Positions 1 through 13,558 of a stretch of 13,558 nt of DNA are shown here, piece by piece. The notes beneath the pieces were generated by a model. That model was not told where the DNA came from and made no database searches. It saw only the letters and a program-made list of their open reading frames with translations. Numbering within the stretch: the stretch's first letter is position 1; each line of letters starts with the position of its first letter. The translations under genes and the position numbers were made by a program. Source of the stretch: a virus (lineage: Duplodnaviria; Heunggongvirae; Uroviricota; Caudoviricetes); IMG/VR virus record IMGVR_UViG_2690315994_000032; one strand, written 5' to 3'.

Positions 1-483
1 ATGACGAAGAAAAAAGCACATAAACCTGGTTCAGCGACCATCGCGCTTAACAAGCGCGCCCGTCACGAATACTTTATTGAAGAAGAGTTCGAAGCGGGAC
101 TTGCCCTGCAAGGCTGGGAAGTTAAATCCCTGCGCGCAGGAAAAGCCAATATTAGCGACAGCTATGTCCTTCTGCGCGACGGAGAAGCGTTCCTGTTTGG
201 CGCAAACATCACGCCAATGGCTGTGGCTTCTACGCATGTGGTGTGCGATCCTACCCGTACCCGCAAGTTACTTCTCAACCAGCGCGAACTTGATTCGTTG
301 TACGGTCGCGTCAATCGAGAAGGCTATACCGTAGTGGCGCTCTCCCTGTACTGGAAAAATGCCTGGTGCAAAGTGAAAATCGGCGTCGCCAAAGGTAAGA
401 AACAGCACGATAAACGTTCAGATATCAAAGAACGCGAATGGCAGGTGGATAAAGCGCGTATCATGAAAAACGCCCACCGTTAA
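1..483 (+). CDS. smpB: SsrA-binding protein SmpB (trans-translation cofactor)
   Basis: Complete 160-aa ORF, ATG at 1 to TAA at 481-483. Translation ([48 protein letters not shown]...) is recognisable as enterobacterial SmpB, and it sits directly upstream of the tmRNA gene as in E. coli. Confidence 0.97.
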
Positions 484-697: not shown

Positions 698-1060
698 GGG
701 GCTGATTCTGGATTCGACGGGATTTGCGAAACCCAAGGTGCATGCCGAGGGGCGGTTGGCCTCGTAAAAAGCCGCAAAAAATAGTCGCAAACGACGAAAA
801 CTACGCTTTAGCAGCTTAATAACCTGCTTAGAGCCCTCTCTCCCTAGCCTCCGCTCTTAGGACGGGGATCAAGAGAGGTCAAACCCAAAAGAGATCGCGT
901 GGAAGCCCTGCCTGGGGTTGAAGCGTTAAAACTTAATCAGGCTAGTTTGTTAGTGGCGTGTCCGTCCGCAGCTGGCAAGCGAATGTAAAGACTGACTAAG
1001 CATGTAGTACCGAGGATGTAGGAATTTCGGACGCGGGTTCAACTCCCGCCAGCTCCACCA
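698..1060 (+). ncRNA. ssrA: tmRNA (transfer-messenger RNA, SsrA)
   Basis: 363-nt sequence starting GGGGCTGATTCTGGATTCGACGGG and ending GGTTCAACTCCCGCCAGCTCCACCA. It has the tRNA-like acceptor/T-arm ends and an internal tag frame, and matches the E. coli tmRNA as I recall it. Confidence 0.96.
787..819 (+). other. tmRNA tag-peptide reading frame (resume codon GCA; encodes ANDENYALAA, stop TAA)
   Basis: GCA AAC GAC GAA AAC TAC GCT TTA GCA GCT TAA read directly from the sequence inside ssrA; this is the canonical enterobacterial degradation tag. Confidence 0.9.
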
Positions 1061-1070
1061 AATAAATCAA

Positions 1071-1099
1071 GGGGTTACGTGAAAGCGTAGCCCCTTTTT
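1071..1099 (+). terminator. Rho-independent terminator downstream of ssrA
   Basis: GC-rich hairpin GGGGTTACG-tgaaag-CGTAGCCCC followed by TTTTT, 10 nt after the tmRNA 3' CCA. Confidence 0.75.
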
Positions 1100-1118
1100 C
1101 TTAGGTAGTGGCGGCAAA

Positions 1119-1157
1119 ATGGCGACAGACTTTTGCGTCCATCTTGCCTGTCGCCAT
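1119..1157. repeat. Perfect 10-bp inverted repeat ATGGCGACAG-N19-CTGTCGCCAT (candidate operator or structured leader)
   Basis: Arms at 1119-1128 and 1148-1157 are exact reverse complements, read directly. The element ends 27 bp upstream of the ATG of the 160-aa ORF. Confidence 0.5.
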
Positions 1158-1183
1158 CTTGAAATCATGCAAAGAGGTTTGAC

Positions 1184-1666
1184 ATGGAAGAACTTCACTT
1201 TGTTTACATCAATGCAAATGGTCGTATCGGTGTTCACTCAATACAGAGCATCAGTTATAGCGAAAATCACATACAGGGCATTTGTAAGAACACCGATCGA
1301 ATAAAAACCTTCCGAAAAGACCGCATTCTTAAACAATACGATTCACAAGAACAAGCCATTCAGGAATGCGCGTCATTCCTCCCCGAAAACTACTCACATC
1401 TCACTAAGCAGTCAGGTCCGAAAAAAAATACATTCGATGTGTGTTTCACCGGATTTAAGAAAGCAGATAAAGAAAGGTTGGTTGATAAGGCGAATGAACA
1501 AGGATTAACGGTAAGAACATCTGTAACCCAAAACCTTCAGATGCTCTGTTGCGGTTACAATGCAGGCCCATCAAAAGTATCGGCAGCCAGGATGAAAGGC
1601 ACTATCATCATAGATGAGCCTGGCTTTATACATTTTCTTGAAACGGGTGAGATCCCAGATGAATAA
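1184..1666 (+). CDS. Hypothetical 160-aa protein with WYL-like N-terminal and BRCT-like C-terminal domains (accessory/cargo gene at the prophage end)
   Basis: ORF with good SD (AAGAGG at 1172-1177, 6-nt spacer to ATG 1184). Visibly AT-rich compared with flanking genes. N-terminal segment YINANGRIGVHSIQSISYSENHIQGICKNTDRIKTFRKDRI fits the WYL-domain pattern; C-terminal segment FDVCFTGF...GLTVRTSVTQNLQMLCCGYNAGPSKVSAARMKGTIIIDEPGF fits a LigA-type BRCT motif. Domain calls are by motif recognition only. Confidence 0.7.
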   Translation: MEELHFVYINANGRIGVHSIQSISYSENHIQGICKNTDRIKTFRKDRILKQYDSQEQAIQECASFLPENYSHLTKQSGPKKNTFDVCFTGFKKADKERLVDKANEQGLTVRTSVTQNLQMLCCGYNAGPSKVSAARMKGTIIIDEPGFIHFLETGEIPDE

Positions 1667-1694
1667 AAACCTGCCGTAGCAGGTTCTCTTTCTT
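1665..1694. terminator. Bidirectional rho-independent terminator between convergent ORF160 and ogr
   Basis: Hairpin ACCTGC-cgta-GCAGGT (1669-1684) flanked by an A-run upstream and a T-rich run downstream, placed exactly between the two convergent stop codons. Confidence 0.6.
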
Positions 1695-1911
1695 AAAAAT
1701 TCATATGGCCCTGACCACCTGGCAATGGATGTGGAGGGGCTGTGGCAATCACTGCAGGTGTCACAATAAACCGGACCACTGTTTCATGGGTAACAAAAGT
1801 GCTCCCGCAGTTAATATTTTGGCACTGGCAGTAACGCTCTTTGGTGCTTTCTGTTACTTGAAAACTGCTCCTTGTGTGCGCCGCATGACCACACTTTGGA
1901 CAATTCATCAT
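1693..1911 (-). CDS. ogr: Ogr/Delta-family zinc-finger late-gene transcriptional activator
   Basis: Translation MMNCPKCGHAAHTRSSFQVTESTKERYCQCQNINCGSTFVTHETVVRFIVTP...PHPLPGG has the C-x2-C...C-x4-C zinc-finger arrangement and length (about 72 aa) of P2 Ogr. The six-frame ORF extends to 1956, but the MM start at 1911/1908 matches the Ogr N-terminus. Confidence 0.85.
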   Translation of the reverse strand: MMNCPKCGHAAHTRSSFQVTESTKERYCQCQNINCGSTFVTHETVVRFIVTPAVIATAPPHPLPGGQGHMNF

Positions 1912-1979
1912 ATCCAGATCCCTACCTTTGCTATCAGAATCATTGCAATGATACACAAGATATCAATATTGAGAACCAT

Positions 1980-3080
1980 TTATTCCATTTCAAGATCACT
2001 AATTTTCACTTCAAGTTCAATACTGGTCGTAAAACCGTTATCCGGGCTGACGGTATGTGTCAGAGTCGTAATGGTCCATTCCGCATCATCTATTGGCTGT
2101 TTAAAGCCACTGACCTTCACAGGCATTTCCGTGTAGAGATCTGCCCGACCTTCCGCCAGTTGTAGCGAGAATGACGCAACACCGCGTTGCAGGCGTTCCC
2201 ACTGCATTTTCGCCGCTCGTTCGGCGTTGCTCCGGTTGGCATAAGTGCGATTAAGTACCAGCACGTTTTCATCCGTCCCCACCAGATAATCGCCCTGCTT
2301 CGCTTCCGGCTCTTTCTTCTGCTTCTTAGTTCTGCGCTTACGCTTCACCGTGGTGCTTTCTTTCTTCGCGGGTTCGCGGGTATGCAACCAGCTGGCAATG
2401 ACGCCCGTATAGGCTCCGCGATCTGCCAGGGTAAAGCGGTGACTGTCGCCGTCCTTACGCGTGATAGTGATCACCGGCAGTGGTTTACCGCTGGCGCTTT
2501 TGCCCTGTCCCTGCCGGATGAATAACAGATTGCCATTTTTCACCGATGCAATAGCACCGTACTGGCGCGCCAGTCGCATCAGAAAACTGCCGTCACTCTC
2601 ATTGGTCTGGTCTATATGTTCCACGGGTTTATCTGACAGGTCTTTACCCAATGCCATCTTCAGTTTGTGCCGTGCAGCTATTTCCTTCACCACTTCCCCA
2701 ACGGTGGTCTTGTGCCACGACTTTTCACGGCGGGTATTCAGCGTTTCACGAAAATCAGCACTTCGCGCCCGGATAGTCAGGCGGTCCGGTGCGCCAGTGT
2801 GTTCAATCTCGTCCACCGTGAATGCCCCTTTCGGGAAAAGCGGCTGCCCCTTCCAGCCCAGCGCCAGCGTAATAACCGCACCACGGCGCGGCAGCACGAT
2901 TTTTCCGTCGGCGTCGTCCAGCTCCAGATCAAGCTGGTCTGCTTCAAAGCCCCGATTGTCCGTCAGCGTCAAACTCATCAGGCGGTTATCCAGCACAGTG
3001 GTGATATCCCTGCCCTCAATACTGATGCTGAATGCGGGAGTTTTGTTGCCTTTGTTAAGCAGTTCAGAGCTGAAATTCAC
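1980..3080 (-). CDS. D: Phage late control / tail protein D (P2 gpD family)
   Basis: 366-aa ORF at the position and orientation expected after U in P2 synteny. Start is GTG at 3080-3078, overlapping the U stop as GTGA, with GGGAGGG SD upstream. Family assignment by recall of gpD-like sequence features. Confidence 0.85.
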   Translation of the reverse strand: MNFSSELLNKGNKTPAFSISIEGRDITTVLDNRLMSLTLTDNRGFEADQLDLELDDADGKIVLPRRGAVITLALGWKGQPLFPKGAFTVDEIEHTGAPDRLTIRARSADFRETLNTRREKSWHKTTVGEVVKEIAARHKLKMALGKDLSDKPVEHIDQTNESDGSFLMRLARQYGAIASVKNGNLLFIRQGQGKSASGKPLPVITITRKDGDSHRFTLADRGAYTGVIASWLHTREPAKKESTTVKRKRRTKKQKKEPEAKQGDYLVGTDENVLVLNRTYANRSNAERAAKMQWERLQRGVASFSLQLAEGRADLYTEMPVKVSGFKQPIDDAEWTITTLTHTVSPDNGFTTSIELEVKISDLEME

Positions 3081-3562
3081 GACAGCAGCCCTCCCACCGT
3101 TTTACTGATATCGCTTAAGGCAGACGTTGCCGTGTCCTGCAGATTATTCAGTTGCGCACTGAGATCACCGAACATATCGGACAGGGATTCATCCACCCGT
3201 TTGAGCGACAGGGTGAACTCAATCCGGCGCGGCATACCGTCGCGGAAAAACTCCGTTTTAGTCTGATTCAGTCCCTCAATCACATACATGCCGTAAATCG
3301 TGCCGCTGCCTTCAATCAGGGGCCATGCTTTCCCCTGTTCTGCCATCTGCTCCAGTACCAGCAACGACAGCCTGCCGCCTGTTATCTCCGGCATAAGAAC
3401 ACCAGAAAGCGTCAGCATGTCGTTGTCCGGTCCCAGAAACTGCGTGGACGGACGTCGGTTGACCCGGCTGTTTGCCGCATGTCGCCAGCTGCGTTGATAC
3501 TGCAGTTCCTGATACGGCACAGTGCGCAGCATAAACACGTACAATCCCAGCACCATCATCAT
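3077..3562 (-). CDS. U: Phage tail protein U (P2 gpU family)
   Basis: 161-aa ORF starting MMMVLGLYVFMLRTVPYQELQ, typical of P2 gpU. ATGA overlap with the T stop; located between T and D. Confidence 0.88.
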   Translation of the reverse strand: MMMVLGLYVFMLRTVPYQELQYQRSWRHAANSRVNRRPSTQFLGPDNDMLTLSGVLMPEITGGRLSLLVLEQMAEQGKAWPLIEGSGTIYGMYVIEGLNQTKTEFFRDGMPRRIEFTLSLKRVDESLSDMFGDLSAQLNNLQDTATSALSDISKTVGGLLS

Positions 3563-6500
3563 GCGTCGTATCCCCCCTGATCGCTGTAGTTACTCCTGGC
3601 TTTTGCCTTCAGCCTGCGTTCACGTTCATCAAGCTGGCGTGCCACCTCCCGCGCAATATCCTGCGCACTTTGTCCTGGCTGCGTCTGGATGATGATCTGC
3701 GTCGGTGCCTCAATCCGTTGAGCGGGCGGCACAGTGGCTGCACGACTCACCATCGCTTCGCCGCCTTTCGCGGGAAGTGCCAAAGGATGTAACGGCGGAA
3801 GCTCTGCAGGCGCGGCAGCAACGCCCATCATTCCGGCAACAACGGCAGCCAGTGCAGCTGTATTTCTCCGACTGGTCACGTTTGCCGGACCGTTGACAAT
3901 TTCAGGCCCGTTTTCACCGACAATGCCGAACTGCCCGCGCGGGATATAGCCGCCGCTGTCATACATCCCCGCAAAGCCATATCCCCATGACGGAAAACCA
4001 CCCGATGGCATCATCACTTTACCGTCTGCATTCACCGTCGCAGGTTGCTGACGCGTCACGCTTTCCGGCAGTTTCGCCTTTGCAGCCTCTTTACTGACAA
4101 TACCGAGTTTCTCCAGCAACCAGGAAACGCCGGATTTCAGGGAGTCCAACGGATGCATGACCATATTCAGCCCTTCCGCCAGTGCCTCCCCGAATCGTCG
4201 CCCCATTGCCGCTGCGCTCTGCAGTTCGGCAGAGGTCGACTTAACAGGCGTCAGCAGATCAGTAAACCAGCCCCACAACGCCTGTACTTTGTCGCCAATC
4301 CACTGGAACACGGGCTTAAGCGGTTCGAATGCAGCACTGATGGGACCTGCCGCCGCTTTGAATCCTTCCACCACGCCACCGAGAAATGCGGTGATGGGTT
4401 GCCAGTATTTCCAGACAACCAGCGCCACGCCCGCCAGTGCAGTAACCACAAGACCTATCGGACTGAGCAGAGCACCTAACAGACCAGATACGGCATACAG
4501 GGCAACGCGCAGCATCGCCAGCGGACCGGATGCCAGCACACGCAGCACCGCGCCTGCGGCAGCCAGTCCACCGCGTAGTGCTGCCAGTGGATTCATAAAC
4601 ATCACAGCAACCGCACGTAAACCGGATAATCCAGACCGCAACAGTGCAACCGGCACACCTGCTACAGTTTTCAGGACATTCCCCGTCAGTGATGCGGTGC
4701 GGCGCAAAGACGACAACGGCGCAGTAAGTAAACCCGCTGCGTTGCCCGATGAAGCAAGCCCGCGTCGCAGCAGTGCCAGTGGAGCGCCAGCTAACCAGGA
4801 CAACGCGCTGCTGGTTCGTGTTACTGCTGCCGTAACGGAAGGTAACGTTTTGATACCCAGCACAGAGAATCCCAGACGGATGACTGCCAGCGGCCCCAGC
4901 ACTGCAGCCAGCGCCACCGCTAAGGTGCCGAGGCCTACGGTAACCGCAGCCACAACAGCCGCTACTTTCATCAGTGTGCCTGTCAGTTCCGGGTTAGCTT
5001 CCACCCAGCGGCGCAACGCCCCCGTGATGCTTTTTACCGTGTACAGAATATCCATCAGCGGCTGGCGCAGCGTTTCGCCCAGGCTGCTGAAGGTGTTCTG
5101 CGCTCCGGTTTTGACCAGCAACCACTGAGCGGAAAGTGAGTCTTTGTTGATGTCGGATTCTTTCTGCATGGAACCGAGCGCATCATTGCCCGCTGTCAGT
5201 TTTAGCTGGCGCTGCAGTTCCGGAAGGTTGTTTGCCAGTTTCGCTGCATCATCACCAAACTCTTTACCAAACAACATGGTCATGGCAGACAGACGCTTGT
5301 CCTGCGGCAGTGCGTTCACCTTCTCCAGCACACGCTGGATAGTTCCCATCGCATCCTTCGTCATCTGCTTTTCAATCACTTCAGGATTGAGTTTCAGCAG
5401 ATTCATCCCTTCAAAGAAACTCTTACTTTGCATGGTGGCAATGGACAATTCACGCACCATCGCGTTTGCTGCACTGGCAGCAACCTCCGGCGCAGCGCCC
5501 AGTGTCAGGAAGGTGGAACCCAGCGCCGCCGCTTTACGATAATCCAGACGATCTGCCACACCGCCCAGGCGTTGCATGACATCAATGATGTCTGACCCTT
5601 TCGACATGGCGTTATCATCCAGATAGTTCAGCGCATCACCGAGCTGTTCAATATTGCGGGTAGGGATTTTGTAGAGCTGGGCGATTTTCCCCAGACTTTC
5701 TGACAGTTCATCCGCTGGCAGCTCAAAGGCTGTTGCCGCCTTTGCTGCCGTGCTGGCGAAGGCCAGCAGGTCACGTTTCTGGTCTTCCCAGCTGTCGTCA
5801 GGATTTGCGACGTTCATGCGCGCACCACCTTCAACCAGTGCGGCAAAGTCCACAGCACCGTTTTCCATCGGCAACTGTTCGCTGGCAGCCTTGATGGCAT
5901 CCTGCATTTCGTAAAAACGCGCAGTGCGGTTGCCATTATCATCACGCAGACCATTGACCTGCTTTGCCACACCTTTCATGGCATCTTCCATGCTGGTATA
6001 GCTTTTTACTGCTGCCATCACTGGCGCACCCATTGCCAGCCCTGCAGCCGTGGTAGTGGCTCCGGCTCCTGCGATGCGATCGCGCACTTCAAGCCGTCTT
6101 GAGTATTGTTCTCTGGCAGCGTTCATCCGTGCCTGTTGTTCACCCAGACGTTTAAGTGCTTTTTGCTGGCCCTCCAGTGCCTGCCTTGTTTCTTCAGCAT
6201 TTTTCTTAAGTTCTCGCTGGGCACTACTGAGTTGTCTGGTATCAATCCCTGATTCTTTAAGTGCCTGACGTTGTCTCTGGACCGCCCCCAACAAGCCGTT
6301 ATAGGTCTGCTGAAGTTCCTGTACTCGTGTTTTGGCCTGACTGAATAACTTTGCCTGCGCGGCGGTTGGCCTGTTAGTGGCAGCAAATTGTGTGGCGAGT
6401 TTTGCCGCCTCTTCGCGGGCTGCGTTCAGGTTGTTGGCTGTTATGGCTAGTTGCGAGCGCGTCTTGCGAAATTCATCAATTCTGCCAGCCTGCTTATTCA

Positions 6501-6636
6501 GTTCTTTGAGGCTGTTTCGGGTATACTGAATTGCGCCAGCCAGCTCTTTCGAACTGGCCTGTGCAACACGGAATGGGCGGGTGAGTTTGTCAACCGCATT
6601 AAGAATGACCTGCAGCCGCAGGTTGTTATCACTCAT
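3559..6636 (-). CDS. T: Tail tape measure protein (P2 gpT family)
   Basis: 1025-aa ORF. N-terminal half is coiled-coil-like (Q/A/K/E/R-rich heptad-like sequence), the central and C-terminal part carries hydrophobic Gly/Ala/Leu-rich repeats (…ALLRRGL…, …ALLRSGL…) and a GYGFAGMYDSGGYIPRGQFGIVGENGPE motif. Lies between E/E' and U. Confidence 0.9.
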   Translation of the reverse strand: MSDNNLRLQVILNAVDKLTRPFRVAQASSKELAGAIQYTRNSLKELNKQAGRIDEFRKTRSQLAITANNLNAAREEAAKLATQFAATNRPTAAQAKLFSQAKTRVQELQQTYNGLLGAVQRQRQALKESGIDTRQLSSAQRELKKNAEETRQALEGQQKALKRLGEQQARMNAAREQYSRRLEVRDRIAGAGATTTAAGLAMGAPVMAAVKSYTSMEDAMKGVAKQVNGLRDDNGNRTARFYEMQDAIKAASEQLPMENGAVDFAALVEGGARMNVANPDDSWEDQKRDLLAFASTAAKAATAFELPADELSESLGKIAQLYKIPTRNIEQLGDALNYLDDNAMSKGSDIIDVMQRLGGVADRLDYRKAAALGSTFLTLGAAPEVAASAANAMVRELSIATMQSKSFFEGMNLLKLNPEVIEKQMTKDAMGTIQRVLEKVNALPQDKRLSAMTMLFGKEFGDDAAKLANNLPELQRQLKLTAGNDALGSMQKESDINKDSLSAQWLLVKTGAQNTFSSLGETLRQPLMDILYTVKSITGALRRWVEANPELTGTLMKVAAVVAAVTVGLGTLAVALAAVLGPLAVIRLGFSVLGIKTLPSVTAAVTRTSSALSWLAGAPLALLRRGLASSGNAAGLLTAPLSSLRRTASLTGNVLKTVAGVPVALLRSGLSGLRAVAVMFMNPLAALRGGLAAAGAVLRVLASGPLAMLRVALYAVSGLLGALLSPIGLVVTALAGVALVVWKYWQPITAFLGGVVEGFKAAAGPISAAFEPLKPVFQWIGDKVQALWGWFTDLLTPVKSTSAELQSAAAMGRRFGEALAEGLNMVMHPLDSLKSGVSWLLEKLGIVSKEAAKAKLPESVTRQQPATVNADGKVMMPSGGFPSWGYGFAGMYDSGGYIPRGQFGIVGENGPEIVNGPANVTSRRNTAALAAVVAGMMGVAAAPAELPPLHPLALPAKGGEAMVSRAATVPPAQRIEAPTQIIIQTQPGQSAQDIAREVARQLDERERRLKAKARSNYSDQGGYDA

Positions 6637-7065
6637 CGTTGGCCCCGCTTCTCTGAATCGCTTTATACCGCCATTCCAGCACTTCGGTCAGCGGCATAAC
6701 GTCAGTAACGGATGGCGGCCAGTGAAAGATGGTGGCGATATCAGCCACCAGATCGTCAACCGTCAGGCTGTCGGTAAACCGGCAAGCACCGACTTCTTCA
6801 ACAAAAAAGTGACAACCTCAACCGACATGGCAGTGAGATCTGCCGGGTCCATCTCTGCAATTTCCTGTGCAGTCAGTGCCGGACTGGAGATACGGGGGAT
6901 CACGGTCATCATCGCGTTCACATCCATATCCATAATGGCCTGCAGGCGTGTACCGCGCAGCGCACCGGACTGCGGTTTACGCAGCACAATTTCGGTGATT
7001 TCTGTTTTACCGCGCTTGATGGGAGTATCCAGTTGAATAGTCTTTTCAGTCTGCTTATCGCTCAT
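6629..7065 (-). CDS. E+E': Tail assembly chaperone E+E' made by programmed -1 ribosomal frameshift
   Basis: Hand translation of the -1 frame from the slippery site gives 58 stop-free codons (VEEVGACRFTDSLTVDDLVADIATIFHWPPSVTDVMPLTEVLEWRYKAIQRSGANDE) ending at TGA 6631-6629, just before the T start codon. Same architecture as P2 E/E'. Confidence 0.75.
6763..7065 (-). CDS. E: Tail assembly chaperone E (P2 gpE family), zero-frame product
   Basis: 100-aa ORF with AGGA SD upstream of ATG 7065, located between FII and T. Contains the slippery heptamer near its 3' end. Confidence 0.85.
   Translation of the reverse strand: MSDKQTEKTIQLDTPIKRGKTEITEIVLRKPQSGALRGTRLQAIMDMDVNAMMTVIPRISSPALTAQEIAEMDPADLTAMSVEVVTFLLKKSVLAGLPTA
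6802..6808 (-). other. Slippery heptamer T-TTT-TTG for the E/E' -1 frameshift
   Basis: Minus-strand TTTTTTG (plus-strand CAAAAAA at 6802-6808) in the zero frame of E, read directly. Confidence 0.75.
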
Positions 7066-7119
7066 TTTGCTGTCCTGTAAATTGGGTTCTGGCGCGGTAT
7101 CCCGCGCCGTTCAGATACA

Positions 7120-7635
7120 TCAGAGGCCGAGGGCGTTGCGGTGCGCTTCCATCAGGTCCACACCGTCCACAATTTCCACCATGTTGATAAGGTCCACTTC
7201 ATAGAGCACCTCACCATTGATGGTCAGCTTCGCGTAGCTGTTGGTACTGGTCACTTTGGTGGTGTTGCTTTCGCCCGTCTTCCACTCGCCGGAATCCACT
7301 TCTTTGTGACGTCCCAGCACCACAAGCTCCACGGCCTGCACTTCCCCGGTATCGTCACGCTGGATAGAGCCGGTAAAGCGCAGCTGAATGCCATCTACCG
7401 TGGCTTTGCCCATCTGCTTAAACAGCAGCAGTTCAGTACCACCAATGGAAAATTCTGTGTCCAGCGCACTGTCATCAAGCCCCAGATCCACATCCACTGC
7501 ACCCGGCATTCCGCCGCCGCGATACTTCTCATATTTGCGGGTGAATTTCGGCAGCGTCAGCGACTCAACGATCCCCTGCCAGTTGTTCCCGTCGTTAAAC
7601 AGGTTCAGATGTTTTAATTTGCGTGGTAAAGCCAT
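7120..7635 (-). CDS. FII: Tail tube protein (P2 gpFII family)
   Basis: 171-aa ORF beginning MALPRKLKHLNLFNDGNNWQG, immediately downstream of FI in the same orientation. Confidence 0.9.
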   Translation of the reverse strand: MALPRKLKHLNLFNDGNNWQGIVESLTLPKFTRKYEKYRGGGMPGAVDVDLGLDDSALDTEFSIGGTELLLFKQMGKATVDGIQLRFTGSIQRDDTGEVQAVELVVLGRHKEVDSGEWKTGESNTTKVTSTNSYAKLTINGEVLYEVDLINMVEIVDGVDLMEAHRNALGL

Positions 7636-7644
7636 GTTGTCCCC

Positions 7645-8817
7645 TTACGCGCTGACCTGGCTGGCGAAATTCACCAGGTACTGATCGGTGATGCGCTGGC
7701 GCAGCATCAGATTTTCAAGTGGCGGCACTGGCGTGTAGTCATAGTCGATGGTGAGTTTTCCGGCTTTCAGCGTGTCTTTGTCGTTCACCGACTCATCCAG
7801 CCAGCAATCACCACCAATGAGATAGCCCTGACTGACCAGGCTGCGTATTTTGGCGCGGATACCTTCGATAATGTCGCGGGCCAGCGACGGGTTAAGCGGT
7901 TTATCCACCGCCCACATGTGTGCTTCTGCCATTGTGTCCGTCAGCACCTGCGCCGTGCGGGTGTAGTTTTCGAAGGCAAAAAGCGGATCATCGCTCAGAC
8001 AGCGGGAACCCCAGAAGCGGAAACCGTCTTTACGCACAAGCGTGGTGACGTCGTTCTGGTTCAGCAGACCTGCATCGGTTGCCGGGTCCTGCAGATCCCA
8101 GAACACATCTGCAGAAATTCCGGTGACACCGTTCACGCCCACGTTGGACAGGCTTTTGTGCCACCCGGTCTGCTCATCAATTTTGGCACGCAGACCAAGT
8201 GCACGGGCGGTGGCATATGCCGTTGCTTCGGCATTCAGCACCGTGTCCCAGCCAGTAAAGTCGGGCCAGATCAGCATTCCTTCGCGCTGGCTGAAGTTTT
8301 CACGGTAAGTGATCTCCTCCTGTACCGTCTTGCAGCCATACGCTGACAGGTAAGCAAACCCACGCAGGCTTTGCGCCACGCTCAGCAACTCAGTCGCAAC
8401 GGCTTTGTTATCGTGACCTGGCACGCCGAGAATGCGCGGTTTAACGCCGAGCTGTGACTGGGCAGATAACAGAGCTTTCATGCCTGTTTTTTTACCTTCA
8501 GCAGTCACTGCGCCGATGATATTGGTCGTGGTTTCTTCTTCCGTTTCACCCTGCGGCACACGCACAACAACGGTCACGGGTTTTGCCTGGTCAGCGATGG
8601 CATCCAGCGAACGGGCCAGCGTGCCGGACTCACCCGCTTTACCGCTGGCAGTCAGCACATCAGTGATCAGCACAGGTTTGTTAAGAGGAAACATTTTTGC
8701 ATCGGCATCATCGCCCGTGCAGACCATGCCCACGATGGCGGTGCTCACCGTGGTAATGGATCGGGTGCCTTCGTTGACTTCAACAACGCGCACCCCGTGG
8801 TGGTAATCCTGAGCCAT
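7645..8817 (-). CDS. FI: Contractile tail sheath protein (P2 gpFI family)
   Basis: 390-aa ORF beginning [21 protein letters not shown]; perfect AGGAGG SD upstream of ATG 8817. First gene of the FI-FII-E-T-U-D block. Confidence 0.92.
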
Positions 8818-8893
8818 AGTGGCGAACCTCCTGATTGGATTAGGCTTCGCCCTATGTTGAAGTGATTGTGCCTGACAAACAGCTAAGCGCAGT

Positions 8894-8911
8894 TGTACCG
8901 TTATTCACACA
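8894..8911 (-). promoter_or_regulatory. Candidate Ogr-dependent late promoter element (TGT-N12-ACA dyad) upstream of FI
   Basis: Minus-strand TGTGTGAATAACGGTACA, read directly, about 80-95 bp upstream of the FI start. P2-family late promoters carry a TGT-N12-ACA activator site centred near -55. Confidence 0.55.
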
Positions 8912-8959
8912 AAATGACGGTATTTGTCTACTTGCAGGGATAATCAAAATAATGCTGAT

Positions 8960-9526
8960 TCAGGGGGATTCATTACTCTTATTTGCCGGAAATTTTCTAT
9001 AAATTGTGGAAACACCCACATCAAAAATCAGTGCAATACGCTGTCTTGATTCTCCGGCCTCGAGTAAACGCCCAATCTGTGCCCACTGTTCGGTGGTCAA
9101 CTTAGGACGGCGTCCACCTACTCTGCCTTTGGCACGAGCTGCAGCCAGCCCTGCCCTGGTACGTTCAACTATCAGTTCGCGTTCCATTTCAGCCAGGGCA
9201 CCCATGACATGAAAAAAGAAACGGCCCATTGGGGTACTGGTATCAATACTGTCAGTCAGGCTTCGGAAATTCACACCACGCTGGCGCAACTCCTCTATCA
9301 GCGTAACAAGATGCCGCATACTGCGCCCCAACCTGTCCAGCTTCCAGACAACCAGCGTGTCTCCTGCCGATAGTGTCCTGAGCAGCTTTTTCAGCCCCGG
9401 TCTGTCGGACTTAGTGCCACTGATTTTATCCTCAAAAATCCGCTCACATCCCGCGCAGTTCAGTGCATTACGTTGCAAATCGGTGTTCTGGTCATTTGTT
9501 GACACGCGTACATAGCCAATAAGCAT
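8960..9526 (-). CDS. pin: Serine DNA invertase, Hin/Gin/Pin family
   Basis: Translation MLIGYVRVSTNDQNTDLQRNALNCAGCERIFEDKISGTKSDRPGLKKLLRTLSAGDTLVVWKLDRLGRSMRHL... has the resolvase/invertase catalytic N-terminus (serine in YVRVST) and a C-terminal HTH, closely resembling e14 Pin. The six-frame ORF starts at 9532 (MIM…); ATG 9526 has better SD spacing (GGGGGA, 5 nt). Confidence 0.93.
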   Translation of the reverse strand: MLIGYVRVSTNDQNTDLQRNALNCAGCERIFEDKISGTKSDRPGLKKLLRTLSAGDTLVVWKLDRLGRSMRHLVTLIEELRQRGVNFRSLTDSIDTSTPMGRFFFHVMGALAEMERELIVERTRAGLAAARAKGRVGGRRPKLTTEQWAQIGRLLEAGESRQRIALIFDVGVSTIYRKFPANKSNESP

Positions 9527-9581
9527 GATCATCCCCCTGAATAAAAACCGGAGATGATGCCAGTTAGCCGTTATCTCTGCA

Positions 9582-9607
9582 TTTTCATAAACGTTGGTTT
9601 GGGAGAA
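9582..9607. other. 26-bp gix/pix-like invertase crossover site A (TTTTCATAAACG-TT-GGTTTGGGAGAA), immediately upstream of pin
   Basis: Imperfect 12-bp inverted half-sites around a 2-bp core, resembling the Hin-family consensus (TTATCnAAAACC-core-GGTTTTnGATAA). Shares an identical 15-bp stretch TTGGTTTGGGAGAAG with site B in gene H. Confidence 0.7.
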
Positions 9608-9651
9608 GATGAACCGCCCCGGTTTTCCTGGAGAGTGTTTTATCTGTGAAC

Positions 9652-10539
9652 TCAGGCTGCCAGATCATCGTTTCTGATGGAAGCATAATAAGCTTTTTCT
9701 GCTTCTGCCGGAGGGATATGACCCAGCCTTCCCAGCAATCGTCGATTGTTATACCAGTCCACCCACGTGAGTGTGGCCAGTTCCACTTCTGCACGGTTTT
9801 TCCAGCTCTTACGGTGTATTACCTCCGCTTTGTAAAGACCATTGATGCTCTCCGCCATCGCGTTGTCATACGAGTCACCTGTACTCCCTGTTGATGCCAG
9901 CAGTTTTGCTTCTTTTAGTCGCTCCGTATAGGCCAGTGATACATACTGAGAACCTTTATCACTGTGATGGACTGTGCCGGACGGCCGACGGGCCCACAAC
10001 GCCTGCTCCAGTGCATCCAGCACGAATGTCGTTTCCATAGACGATGAGACTCGCCACCCCACGATGCATCCGGCAAACACATCAATGATGAACGCCACAT
10101 AGACGAAGCCCTGCCATGTGCTGACGTAAGTAAAATCAGCCACCCACAGCTGGTCAGGACGTTCTGCCACGAACTGACGGTTTACGCGGTCGCCTGCGGA
10201 AACGGCTTTCCGGCTGACGGTAGTACGGACCTTTTTACCCCGGAGAACACCGGCAAGTCCCATAACCGCCATGAGGCGCGCCACTGTACATCTGGCCACC
10301 CTGATACCTTCGCGTAACAACTGGCGCCAGACTTTACGCACACCGTACACCTGATGATTTTCATCGTATACGCGCTGTATCTCTCTCTTCAGCCAGTCAT
10401 CGCGCTGCGCACGGGCACTGCGTTTATCAGGATGATGTCGCTGTTGCTGACAGTGGTAATACGTTGACGGGGCAATATGCAGTTCACTGCATACCGGTCC
10501 GACCCCGTACTGCTCACGCAGCTTATCCAGCAGTGGCAT
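9652..10539 (-). CDS. IS629 OrfB (DDE transposase catalytic subunit)
   Basis: 295-aa ORF with an integrase-core pattern (…WVADFTYV…, …HHSDKGSQY…, …DNAMAESINGLYKAE…). Its ATG overlaps the OrfA stop as TAATG, next to an A6 run, so an OrfAB fusion by frameshift is expected. Confidence 0.88.
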   Translation of the reverse strand: MPLLDKLREQYGVGPVCSELHIAPSTYYHCQQQRHHPDKRSARAQRDDWLKREIQRVYDENHQVYGVRKVWRQLLREGIRVARCTVARLMAVMGLAGVLRGKKVRTTVSRKAVSAGDRVNRQFVAERPDQLWVADFTYVSTWQGFVYVAFIIDVFAGCIVGWRVSSSMETTFVLDALEQALWARRPSGTVHHSDKGSQYVSLAYTERLKEAKLLASTGSTGDSYDNAMAESINGLYKAEVIHRKSWKNRAEVELATLTWVDWYNNRRLLGRLGHIPPAEAEKAYYASIRNDDLAA

Positions 10540-10865
10540 TATTTTTTCCAGAGGCGGTCGAACTCCGCCTTCGCAAAATAAGCGGAAGCCTGGCGAAGGA
10601 TATCGTTACTGCGGCGCAGTTCACGATTTTCACGTTCCAGCTCTTTCAGACGCTGACGTTCAGCGGTGGTGAATCCACCATCACCACTCCCGGTATCCCG
10701 CTCATGCTGACGAACCCACACACGCAGAGTCTCTGGCGTACAGCCAATCTTTGGGGCAATGGAACAAATTGCCGCCCATTGTGAGTCATATTCGCCCTGA
10801 CTTTCCAGAACCATACGAACTGCCCGTTGACGGACCTCGGGGGAAAAACGTGTATTTTTAGTCAT
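10539..10865 (-). CDS. IS629 OrfA (HTH transposase subunit)
   Basis: 108-aa ORF with HTH region and leucine-zipper-like C-terminus ([25 protein letters not shown]), typical of IS3-family OrfA. Confidence 0.88.
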
Positions 10866-10920
10866 CCTGTTTACCTCTTTCTCAGGGAGTTTAGTCTCCA
10901 GGATTCCCGGGGCGGTTCAC

Positions 10921-11403
10921 AGCTTCCTGCCTTATCTCGCCTGGGCGTTCTCTGTGGATCGCTGGGACGAGGGCTGGACAGAAAGCGTCAAACGCCAGGT
11001 AGTGAAGGATGCTTTTTATATTCATCAGCATAAAGGAACTACCAGTGCCGTGCGGCGGGTGGTGGAACCGTTCGGATTCCTGATCCGCATTATTGAGTGG
11101 TGGCAGACCGGAGAAACACCGGGCACGTTTCGCCTGGATATCGGCGTGCAGGACCAGGGCATCACTGAAGATACCTATCTGGAACTTGAGCGGCTGATAA
11201 GCGATGCCAAACCATGTAGCCGTCACATGATCGGCATGTCCATCAATCTGCAGACCAGCGGTCCGCATTGGGTGGGGGCCGCCAGCTATCTTGGCGAAGA
11301 AATCACGATCTATCCGTATATCAACGAAACAATTATTTCCGGCGGCACCGCGCATGAAGGCGGGGCGGTCCATGTTATTGACACAATGAGAGTGAATCCA
11401 TGA
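10921..11403 (+). pseudogene. I: Baseplate assembly protein I (P2 gpI family), 5'-truncated by IS629
   Basis: The reading frame is open from the first base after the IS end (SFLPYLAWAFSVDRWDEGW…) with no in-frame start upstream; the six-frame ORF begins only at an internal GTG (10954). The translation resembles the gpI region …LLPWLAWAFSVDRWDE… as I recall it, so the N-terminus is missing. Stop overlaps the H start as ATGA. Confidence 0.75.
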
Positions 11404-12956
11404 GCACAAAATTTTATACCCTGCTGACGGATATTGGCGCGGCGAAACTTGCCAGCGCCGCCGCGCTCGGTGTGCCGCTAAAAATTACCCATATGGCGGT
11501 GGGCGATGGCGGCGGAACATTGCCAACGCCGGACGCCAAGCAGACAGCATTGGTAAATGAGAAACGCCGGGCTGCGCTGAATATGCTCTATATCGACCCG
11601 CAGAACAGCAGCCAGATTATTGCTGAACAGGTGATCCCTGAAAACGAGGGCGGTTGGTGGATACGTGAAGTGGGCCTGTTTGATGAGTCCGGGGCATTGA
11701 TTGCCGTGGGCAACTGCCCGGAAAGCTATAAGCCGCAACTGGCTGAAGGCAGCGGGCGTACCCAGACCGTGCGCATGGTGCTGATTACCAGCAGCACGGA
11801 CAATATCACCCTGAAAATCGACCCTGCCGTAGTGCTGGCAACCCGCAAGTATGTGGATGACAAGGTACTGGAGCTGAAGGTGTACGTGGATGATCAGATG
11901 GCAAAACATCTTGCCGCACCGGACCCGCATTCACAGTATGCACCCAAAGAAAGTCCGACGTTTACCGGGACACCAAAAGCGCCAACTCCAGCGGCAGGGA
12001 ATAACACCACGCAGGTTGCGACCACCGCGTTTGTTCAGGCGGCACTGACGGCTCTTATTAATGGTGCGCCAGCCACGCTGGACACGCTGAAAGAAATAGC
12101 CGCAGCCATTAACAATGATCCGAATTTCAGTACCACCATTAACAATGCGCTGGCACTGAAAGCGCCGTTGTCGAGTCCGGCACTCACCGGAACGCCAACA
12201 GCCCCCACTGCTGCACAGTCGGTCAACAATACACAGATTGCCACCACGGCTTTTGTGAAATCGGCGATTGCAGCAATGGTAGGTTCTGCACCTGCGGCAC
12301 TGGATACACTGAACGAACTGGCGTCGGCGTTGGGGAATGATCCGAACTTTGCCACGACAATGCTTAATGCGCTGGCAGGTAAACAACCGCTGGACAATAC
12401 GCTGACTAATTTGAGTGGAAAGGATGTCGCTGGTCTTCTCGCATACCTTGGTTTGGGAGAAGGTTCTGCATTACCCGTTGGTGTGCCTGTTCCGTGGCCT
12501 TCCGCCACTCCGCCAACAGGCTGGCTGAAATGCAACGGTGCGGCTTTTTCTGCTGAAGAATACCCGGAACTGGCAAAGGCTTACCCGACCAATAAATTGC
12601 CTGATTTACGCGGTGAATTTATTCGTGGCTGGGATGACGGTCGCGGGATTGATACTGGTCGCGCTTTGCTTAATTGGCAGCCACACACAATTTTGGACCA
12701 TGCACACTATATGGAATTATGGACAGGGGACGGACTCGCCGCAGGAAGTGCACGGGAAGGAGTAAACCCAGGAATACTGGCTACATACGGTGACGGGGGA
12801 ATAGTTAAAACGGACGAACCCGGTCTTAAGGTGCCTTCCTCACTACGAGCTATTAGCTCTCGTAGTGTTAAACGTTATGGTGAAATTAGTGAAAATGTAG
12901 GTACAGAAACTCGTCCTCGTAACATCGCTTTTAATTATATTGTGAGGGCCGCATGA
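11400..12956 (+). CDS. H: Tail fibre protein (P2 gpH-like N-terminus; C-terminal tail-collar/receptor-binding module)
   Basis: 518-aa ORF. N-terminus MSTKFYTLLTDIGAAKLASAA…MAVGDGGG… is gpH-like. Middle has two tandem copies of the conserved fibre repeat (…TGTP.APT…NNTQ.ATTAFV…LDTL.E.A.A..NDPNF.TT..NALA.K.PL). C-terminus has collar motifs (GWLKCNGAAFSAEEYPELAKAYP…LPDLRGEFIRGWDDGRGID). Confidence 0.9.
   Translation: MSTKFYTLLTDIGAAKLASAAALGVPLKITHMAVGDGGGTLPTPDAKQTALVNEKRRAALNMLYIDPQNSSQIIAEQVIPENEGGWWIREVGLFDESGALIAVGNCPESYKPQLAEGSGRTQTVRMVLITSSTDNITLKIDPAVVLATRKYVDDKVLELKVYVDDQMAKHLAAPDPHSQYAPKESPTFTGTPKAPTPAAGNNTTQVATTAFVQAALTALINGAPATLDTLKEIAAAINNDPNFSTTINNALALKAPLSSPALTGTPTAPTAAQSVNNTQIATTAFVKSAIAAMVGSAPAALDTLNELASALGNDPNFATTMLNALAGKQPLDNTLTNLSGKDVAGLLAYLGLGEGSALPVGVPVPWPSATPPTGWLKCNGAAFSAEEYPELAKAYPTNKLPDLRGEFIRGWDDGRGIDTGRALLNWQPHTILDHAHYMELWTGDGLAAGSAREGVNPGILATYGDGGIVKTDEPGLKVPSSLRAISSRSVKRYGEISENVGTETRPRNIAFNYIVRAA
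11952..12395 (+). repeat. Tandem duplication (2 x about 222 bp, 74 aa) inside tail-fibre gene H
   Basis: Two successive units starting AGTCCGACGTTTACCGGGACACC (11952) and AGTCCGGCACTCACCGGAACGCC (12174), encoding SPTFTGTPKAPT… and SPALTGTPTAPT… with roughly 60% protein identity by eye. Unit boundaries are approximate. Confidence 0.6.
12436..12461. other. 26-bp gix/pix-like invertase crossover site B (TTCTCGCATACC-TT-GGTTTGGGAGAA) inside gene H at the constant/variable junction
   Basis: Same architecture as site A; right half-site and TT core are identical to site A. Encodes …LAYLGLGEG…, immediately before the collar/receptor-binding C-terminus, matching the Sc/Sv junction position in Mu/P1/e14-type switches. 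Confidence 0.7.
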
Positions 12957-13558
12957 TGAATAAAGCTGTATTAAATAGCGAACTCATTGCCATAAAAGCG
13001 GGAGATATTACCGTTTATAATTATGATGGTGAAACGCGGGAATATATTTCTACATCAACTGAATATCTCGCTGTCGGCGTCGGTATCCCGGCATGTTCCT
13101 GTCTGGATGCACCAGGTACACATAAAGCTGGTTATGCAATCTGTCGCTCTGTAGATTTAAATTCATGGGAATATGTGCCAGACCATCGCGGTGAAGTTGT
13201 CTATAGTACCGAAACGGGAGATACCAAAGAAATCACAGTTCCGGGTGATTACCCTGAAAATACAACCACTATCGCCCCATTAACGCCATACGATAAATGG
13301 GATGGTGAGAAATGGGTGACGGATACCGAGGCACAGCATAGCGCCGCACTAGACGCGGCAGAAGTAAAGCGCCAGTCGCTGATTGATGCTGCAATGGCTT
13401 CCATCAGTCTGATTCAACTGAAATTACAGGCCGGGCGGAAGCTGACGCAGCCAGAAAACACCCGACTTAACGCTGTGCTGGATTATATTGACGCGGTGAC
13501 GGCAACAGATACCAGCACAGCGCCGGACGTCATCTGGCCTGAACTGCCGGAGGCGTAG
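12953..13558 (+). CDS. G: Tail fibre assembly chaperone (P2 gpG / Mu U / Tfa family)
   Basis: 201-aa ORF with ATGA overlap to the H stop and GAGGG SD. The C-terminal region (…QSLIDAAMASISLIQLKLQAGRKLTQPENTRLNAVLDYIDAVTATDTSTAPDVIWPELP) is the conserved Tfa chaperone motif. The stop codon is the last 3 bases of the window. Confidence 0.88.
   Translation: MMNKAVLNSELIAIKAGDITVYNYDGETREYISTSTEYLAVGVGIPACSCLDAPGTHKAGYAICRSVDLNSWEYVPDHRGEVVYSTETGDTKEITVPGDYPENTTTIAPLTPYDKWDGEKWVTDTEAQHSAALDAAEVKRQSLIDAAMASISLIQLKLQAGRKLTQPENTRLNAVLDYIDAVTATDTSTAPDVIWPELPEA

Follow-up and report, generated by a model that had tools for sequence, protein, structure and literature searches.

The tail fiber locus of a P2-like prophage

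We analyzed the tail fiber gene H and its surroundings in a DNA stretch of 13,558 nucleotides (nt) from IMG/VR virus record IMGVR_UViG_2690315994_000032 (Caudoviricetes), which we refer to as the window. H is the tail fiber gene of a P2-like prophage and lies between a truncated copy of the baseplate gene I (I') and the fiber assembly gene G, in the same order as in the intact P2-like prophage L007 (Table 1). On its minus strand, the window carries the prophage genes ogr, D, U, T, E, FII, FI, and pin, followed by a first DNA crossover site (pix site A) and the insertion sequence (IS) IS1203, and then the plus-strand genes I', H, and G. Because smpB and ssrA are found directly before the ogr end, the prophage appears to be integrated at ssrA.

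Table 1. Features of the window, with positions in nucleotides and, for parts of H, amino acid residues (aa). ORF, open reading frame; HMM, hidden Markov model.
Feature	Position (nt)	Strand	Residues of H (aa)	Remarks
smpB	1-483			Window start, ahead of the ogr end of the prophage
Transfer-messenger RNA gene ssrA	698-1060			Tag ANDENYALAA; directly precedes the ogr end of the prophage
Serine DNA invertase, Pin family	8960-9532	-		Intact; Resolvase and HTH_7 domains
pix site A	9582-9607			Adjoins pin; TTTTCATAAACG TT GGTTTGGGAGAA; identical to the pinE-proximal site of e14
IS1203/IS629	9610-10919	-		IS3 family; 1310 bp; orfA 10539-10865, orfB 9652-10539
Baseplate gene I, truncated (I')	10920-11403	+		First 122 nt missing; longest ORF from GTG 10954; C-terminal three quarters kept
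Tail fiber gene H	11400-12956	+	1-518	Intact ORF, 518 aa; stop overlaps start of G (ATGA)
gpH-type N-terminal domain	11400-11849	+	1-150	PF12571, E 3.6e-65; 88/150 identical to P2 gpH aa 1-151
Linker from N-terminal domain to repeats	11850-11945	+	151-182	11/24 aligned residues identical to P2 gpH, gapped
Repeat copy 1	11946-12167	+	183-256	Unit HMM 131.5 bits
Repeat copy 2	12168-12389	+	257-330	Unit HMM 138.3 bits
Short linker before crossover site	12390-12435	+	331-345	P2 gpH linker longer here (aa 328-377)
pix site B, inside H	12436-12461		346-354	LAYLGLGE; TTCTCGCATACC TT GGTTTGGGAGAA; 26 bp, Pin/Gin-type, 1 mismatch to consensus
Collar block	12462-12701	+	355-434	PF07484 at aa 361-408; nearly invariant among relatives
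Hypervariable insert	12702-12908	+	435-503	Putative receptor-contacting tip
Conserved C-terminal strand	12909-12953	+	504-518	TETRPRNIAFNYIVRAA; kept in nearly all relatives and in StfE
Tail fiber assembly gene G	12953-13558	+		201 aa; PF02413, E 3.5e-30; 90% identical to e14 TfaE

The H product is 100% identical over all 518 aa to a database protein annotated as "MULTISPECIES: phage tail protein [Enterobacteriaceae]" (P0002, 78 contigs), and the same protein is also encoded by the intact P2-like E. coli/Shigella prophages L007 and L008. The fiber, its architecture, and its invertible module are therefore already known and annotated, and the only strain-specific feature of the locus is the IS1203-associated rearrangement described below. 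An earlier note on this DNA, made from the sequence alone, had overlooked both the truncation of gene I by IS1203 and the direct orientation of the pix sites, while it correctly called H shorter than P2 gpH (518 versus 669 aa; NP_046775). In Pfam, the N-terminal domain of H matches PF12571 ("phage tail-collar fiber protein") with 219 bits versus a cutoff of 23, and this domain presumably attaches the trimeric fiber to the baseplate. The Collar domain PF07484 is found at aa 361-408 (E 1.2e-14, 54.4 bits versus a cutoff of 24), and NCBIfam has no model matching H or G. Three antisense ORFs within H (11478-11930, 11931-12386, and 12035-12535) and a plus-strand ORF at 12538-12765 are without a Pfam family and were taken as spurious.

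H changes partners at a DNA crossover site

The earlier note had proposed that H switches character exactly at pix site B, and domain-wise alignment to P2 gpH, Mu S, and e14 StfE bears this out. Protein similarity to P2 gpH spans aa 1-340 of H, with 59% identity in the N-terminal domain and 80% in repeat copy 2, and nothing aligns beyond aa 340; similarity to e14 StfE spans aa 350-518, and Mu S gave no alignment. At the DNA level, the match to P2 stops at nt 12389; e14 stfE aligns from nt 12445 onward, a position within the crossover site, with 92.8% nt identity across 12445-12665. The G+C content is around 55% before site B, around 50% after it, and 40% to 45% in the first part of G. Uniform similarity to a single fiber was seen only in the trivial sense that H as a whole is identical to its annotated database counterpart.

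Site B is a full 26-bp crossover site within H (TTCTCGCATACCTTGGTTTGGGAGAA). When up to 2 mismatches to the consensus were allowed, sites A and B were the only two matches in the window, compared to 0.00 expected from 200 shuffles, and the homologue of site B in the related prophages L001, L002, and L007 forms the left boundary of an invertible segment. Judged from these alignments, H combines a P2-gpH-type constant part with an e14-StfE-type collar C terminus in a mosaic joined at the pix site. This mosaicism covers the whole module and not H alone, since G shares 90% identity with TfaE, and the invertase shares 86.7% with PinE (as well as 74.6% with Gin and 100% with the invertase of L007). 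By the same comparisons, the variable part of H and G, together with pin, correspond to the module of the e14 P segment. G gave no match to P2 G or Mu U, and this TfaE-like chaperone would be expected to fold the collar-type C-terminal module.

These affinities place H between several known systems. With P2 gpH it shares the PF12571 N terminus, one 74-aa shaft unit, and the position after gene I, but P2 gpH differs by two PF03406 repeats, a longer linker, and a Mu-S-type C terminus (PF21446) instead of the collar; in addition, the chaperone G of P2 is unrelated, and P2 lacks an invertase. Starting at the pix site, H is 59% identical to e14 StfE, with a near-identical collar and identical last 16 aa. 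The P segment of e14 in E. coli K-12 is composed of StfP/TfaP/TfaE/StfE and PinE, and the alternative arm found in relatives of the window likewise has a gp53-like tip and a TfaP-like chaperone. Unlike in H, the constant part of the e14 fiber (the StfP N terminus) is short and unrelated to gpH, and the tip of StfE differs from aa 435-503 of H. Phage Mu has the same kind of layout with a constant part, a crossover site in the fiber gene, two alternative C termini each with its chaperone, and an adjacent serine invertase, but its S and S' proteins are without sequence similarity to H.

A change of partner at a crossover-like site is a general pattern of the gpH fiber family. P2 gene H holds a vestigial gix-like site (TTATCGAATATCTCGGTTTACAGGAA; 2858-2883 of the P2 sequence L006, aa 375-384), and the similarity of P2 gpH to Mu S begins exactly there, although P2 is without an invertase.

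A conserved scaffold carries a hypervariable tip cassette

The C-terminal module had been described as a collar of the Mu S and T-even type with the motifs GWLKCNGA…YPELA…LPDLRGEFIRGWDDGRGID, which are indeed present in H. The T-even half of this comparison stood: A profile built from H and its relatives matches the tip of T4 gp37 (2XGF, E 4.8e-20), the short tail fiber of phage φTE (9CUY, E 7e-18; PMC11972413), and T4 gp12 (1OCY, aa 357-516, E 2.1e-5). The Mu half did not, as Mu S and S' have no BLASTP match to H at E<0.01, and Mu S contains PF21446 and PF03406 instead of a Collar domain; Mu S and S' were accordingly dropped as relatives of the H C terminus. What H shares with gp37, gp12 (1OCY and 1PDI), and 9CUY is the succession of a collar, an HxH motif, and a conserved C-terminal strand ending in …NIAFNYIVR, and the last strand of H aligns with this NIAFNYIVR terminus of T4 gp37. 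The single HxH motif of H (DHAHY, aa 433-437) straddles the start of the hypervariable insert and aligns with EHSHY of T4 gp37, whose needle carries a series of such motifs. The T-even fibers further differ from H by unrelated tip sequences and by different N-terminal parts and chaperones.

Variation among close relatives is concentrated in one segment of this module. In 80 of 117 close relatives, aa 435-503 have low identity to H while all other segments are at least 85% identical, and at the DNA level no similarity to e14 was found for this insert (12702-12908). Among the 120 closest protein clusters, we found at least 12 unrelated cassettes of around 55 to 105 aa between GWDDGRG.D.GR and ETRPRNIAFNYIVRAA, most of which begin with HxH. 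Because the collar is conserved while aa 435-503 are variable, receptor specificity most likely sits in this segment after the collar and not in the collar itself. The earlier view of the entire C-terminal region as the host specificity determinant is therefore right in that the C-terminal module is exchanged by the invertase in relatives, but it has to be narrowed since the collar is invariant. By analogy to gp37 and gp12, the collar and the last strand would form a conserved scaffold and the cassette a receptor-contacting tip, and trimer formation and metal binding of the collar module may be expected on the same grounds. The conserved flanks would supply homology for cassette exchange, which makes cassette variation a second layer of host range variation independent of the invertase.

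The shaft repeat is an old duplication of a common building block

The shaft of H contains a unit repeated in tandem every 74 aa (222 nt), as had been claimed before. Its aligned cores (aa 185-256 and 259-330) are identical at 44 of 72 positions (61%) with a Smith-Waterman score of 229, compared to 37.7±7.1 (maximum 64) for 500 shuffles, so that the duplication is real. This direct alignment revealed the repeat where BLASTP of H against itself had failed to list it. A DNA-level repeat scan of the window did not detect it either, consistent with a nt identity of 62.5% between the two copies, whose longest exact runs are 11 and 12 nt. Such values indicate an old duplication that is a poor substrate for homologous or slipped recombination today, at odds with the earlier proposal that the repeat is prone to slippage; what remains of this proposal is that copy number apparently changes on an evolutionary time scale.

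The description of the shaft as P2-type likewise holds for one unit only. Copy 2 is identical at 59 of 74 residues (80%) to the sole unit of P2 gpH (aa 254-327), with 74% identity at the DNA level, and it also matches the gp4 tail-collar fiber of PDB entry 9d93. Copy 1 stands where P2 gpH carries its two PF03406 repeats, which are absent from H, and the alignment there is weak and gapped. A search with one unit returned 26,210 cluster representatives of the full library at E≤0.001, and the best of these have between 2 and more than 10 matched stretches per protein. The unit, present in thousands of fibers, is therefore a generic fiber building block and not peculiar to H.

Counted with the unit HMM among the 120 closest protein clusters, exactly two copies are present in 117, like in H, and three in P0036 and P0042, while P2 gpH has one; P0001 contains a larger internal duplication. 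In the three-copy proteins, the middle copy begins with the ~30 residues that open copy 2 and continues with the ~44 that close copy 1. Its DNA in L009 (4547-5212) shifts at informative sites from copy-3-like to copy-1-like around nt 85-90 of the unit, at the junction TTAFV|QAAL. From this pattern, the hybrid middle copy reads as the signature of an unequal crossover. The event is old, because the L009 hybrid has by now diverged by around 10% from both parents. In P0001 (768 aa, from a Salmonella Typhi record), a duplication of around 250 aa starts in the repeat region and ends midway through the tip cassette, with its join at an NNTT motif common to repeat copy 1 and the cassette; this may be a real rearrangement or an artifact of assembly or annotation.

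Intact relatives reveal a rearrangement at IS1203

The intact prophages L001, L007, and L008 share the order J-I-H-G1-<G2-<Hv2-pin-FI, FII…, where Hv2 and G2 are the alternative C-terminal part of the fiber and its chaperone; their gene I is complete, and their pix sites are inverted. The fiber of L001 is 97.9% identical to H over 518 aa, with the same neighbors I, G, and pin and the same pix sites. The invertible segment in these relatives is the 1.9 kb between the inverted sites, and its inversion is predicted to result in a fiber of 468 aa with a gp53-like tip (PF21882), while the alternative chaperone G2 is 55.6% identical to TfaP. Phase variation of invertible fiber loci has been measured in P2-like prophages of enteropathogenic E. 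coli (PMC4272514) and in e14 (PMC12529663).

Compared to these relatives, the window has an intervening IS1203, a truncated gene I, and direct crossover sites. It is composed of two blocks that are colinear with L007 at 99.8% to 99.9% identity but in opposite orientation: Positions 968-9608 correspond to L007 21557-12918, and positions 10920-13558 to L007 9521-12159. The block I'-H-G is therefore inverted relative to pin-FI-FII-E-T-U-D. Its first base, 10920, corresponds to L007 9521 and L001 6001 within gene I, and the truncated product matches positions 49-138 only of the PF09684 profile and is 100% identical to aa 53-201 of the L007 gene I product. Sites A and B, which a DNA repeat scan also picked up, are direct repeats that both read …TT GGTTTGGGAGAA on the plus strand, whereas the two crossover sites are inverted in L001, L002, L007, e14, and Mu. 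The interval between them is taken up by IS1203, I', and the constant part of H; an alternative arm was seen in the relatives only and may follow, as a C-terminal exon with its chaperone, beyond the window end.

The IS1203 element of the window has 25-nt terminal inverted repeats as well as HTH_Tnp_1 and rve domains and is 95.6% identical to the annotated IS1203 of L002. No target duplication was found at its ends, where the flanking triplets AGA (9607-9609) and CAG (10920-10922) differ, and this fits a rearrangement between two IS copies. An independent IS1203 in L002 (9314-10650) lies 1 bp from the window position at the same pix edge and has a CTT/CTT duplication. IS1203/IS3-family elements of other E. 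coli genomes are also found inside the invertible segment of L010 (4261-5474) and L011 (4565-5778), around 1 kb from the pixR edge. We considered a hot spot for IS1203 at the outer pixR edge but dropped it, with L002 as the one instance and the elements of L010 and L011 ~1 kb away.

Gin, Hin, and Pin invertasomes do not accept directly oriented sites for inversion and use them very poorly for deletion. Given the direct orientation of its sites, the fiber switch of the window is most likely dead and H locked in the collar form.

A probable IS1203-linked inversion and its alternatives

We consider it very probable that H is a modular P2/e14-type fiber of a prophage at ssrA whose switch was broken by an IS1203-linked inversion. 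In this model, the fiber would be built from a gpH-type baseplate domain, a two-unit shaft, a linker with the crossover site, and a receptor-binding module of the gp12/gp37 type, in which the collar would be followed by one HxH motif, the hypervariable tip cassette, and a last strand returning to the collar. In intact relatives, Pin would flip the 1.9-kb segment to replace the collar tip and its chaperone by the gp53-like tip and the TfaP-like chaperone and in this way alternate the host range. On the path to the window, one IS1203 copy would have inserted in gene I and another at the outer margin of the pix site next to pin, and recombination between these inverted copies would have flipped the stretch I'-Hc-pix-Hv1-G1-G2-Hv2 (with Hc and Hv1 for the constant part and the collar C terminus of H). 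The pix sites would thereby have become direct repeats, and H, fixed in the collar form, would have been separated from the V-W-J-I late operon, so that it is probably not expressed with the tail operon here. A two-IS inversion is the most likely mechanism for what we observe.

Several observations weigh against this model. The window ends before the places where the alternative tip, a second IS1203, and the 5' part of gene I would be found, and the A at position 9609 agrees with neither the L007 sequence nor an evident 3-bp duplication. Misassembly at a repeated IS would produce an identical arrangement. No sigma-70-like plus-strand promoter was detected between the IS and H by a scan that is blind to the Ogr-dependent late promoters of P2. 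Regarding the fold of the C-terminal module, an AlphaFold2 monomer model of aa 340-518 from a 16-sequence alignment was unusable (predicted local distance difference test score 38.6, predicted template modeling score 0.24), which leaves the assignment to sequence homology.

That the inverted arrangement is an assembly artifact, with misjoined IS1203 copies and I-H-G-G2-Hv2-pin as the true order, is unlikely in our view, though IS1203 is multicopy per genome and a classic cause of misjoins, and the element of the window is without a target duplication. Database searches also left both junctions without a match: Coverage of window positions 8800-13558 stayed below 80% in every complete E. coli genome, none of the 6 with at least 80% coverage of 9400-11200 reaches the junction of the IS and gene I (10919/10920), both IS junctions had 0 exact matches in species-representative genomes, and the truncated I product matched only other defective P2-like prophages, none of them with the window junction. 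However, even a misjoin could yield these junctions only from two separate IS1203 insertions, in gene I and at the pixR edge, so that gene I would be disrupted anyway, and L002 bears an independent IS1203 at nearly this pixR edge, flanked by a proper CTT duplication. An inversion bounded by IS copies without target duplication is, moreover, a normal product of IS-IS recombination, and the absent duplication matches this outcome. We find it somewhat harder still to believe that H remains a working host range determinant, with a C terminus switched at the pix site and a shaft whose length varies by slipped recombination. The intact H ORF, its identity to the fiber of intact prophages, and the intact pin are in line with this idea, and so are the three-copy relatives with their hybrid middle copy and the wide variation of unit copy number among fibers. 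Against it stand the direct instead of inverted pix sites, the truncation of gene I, and the inversion of I'-H-G relative to the remaining tail genes. On the side of the shaft, the two repeat copies have no more than 12 identical bases in a row at 62.5% nt identity, exactly two copies are kept in 117 of the 120 closest clusters, and the L009 hybrid, ~10% diverged from its parents, testifies to an old event.

It is very improbable that the orphaned H and G were kept because the host uses them, for example, as a receptor-masking anti-phage protein like the e14 chimeras StfE2 and StfP2. The variable part and its chaperone are the StfE/TfaE module of e14, and the StfP2 chimera with a StfE C terminus was reported to protect somewhat against T2 and Bas69 (PMC12529663), but the strong blocker in that study is StfE2, which has the gp53-like and not the collar tip. 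The undamaged H ORF could point in the same direction; yet, the 99.8% to 99.9% identity to intact prophages implies that the rearrangement is recent, and ORF intactness is therefore uninformative on selection. Nor did the scan detect a sigma-70-like promoter between the IS and H. A host-expressed, receptor-masking H-G pair on which Pin would act at direct sites, with deletion or no reaction instead of flipping, thus deserves very little credence.

If the IS1203-linked inversion is correct, the tail module of this strain is broken, with I truncated, H-G inverted, and the switch frozen. H itself is a case of textbook tail fiber mosaicism that matters little beyond annotation. The family to which it belongs combines three layers of variation: flipping by the invertase, cassette exchange between the collar and the last strand, and the occasional gain of a repeat. 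For host range prediction from prophage sequences, aa 435-503 should be compared and not the collar.

Other genes of the prophage and its relatives

A 160-aa ORF (1184-1666, plus strand) lies between ssrA and ogr and is found in the same place in L007, L008, and L015. Its sole Pfam match is a subthreshold hit to BRCT (E 9e-4), and the ORF may represent cargo carried at the end of the prophage. In related P2-like prophages, outside the window, additional genes are found between S and V: a TIR_2 gene in L009 (694-1509), an AIPR gene in L015 (6185-7885), and an unannotated 176-aa ORF in L007 (6951-7481). This S-V interval looks like a hot spot for cargo or defense genes.

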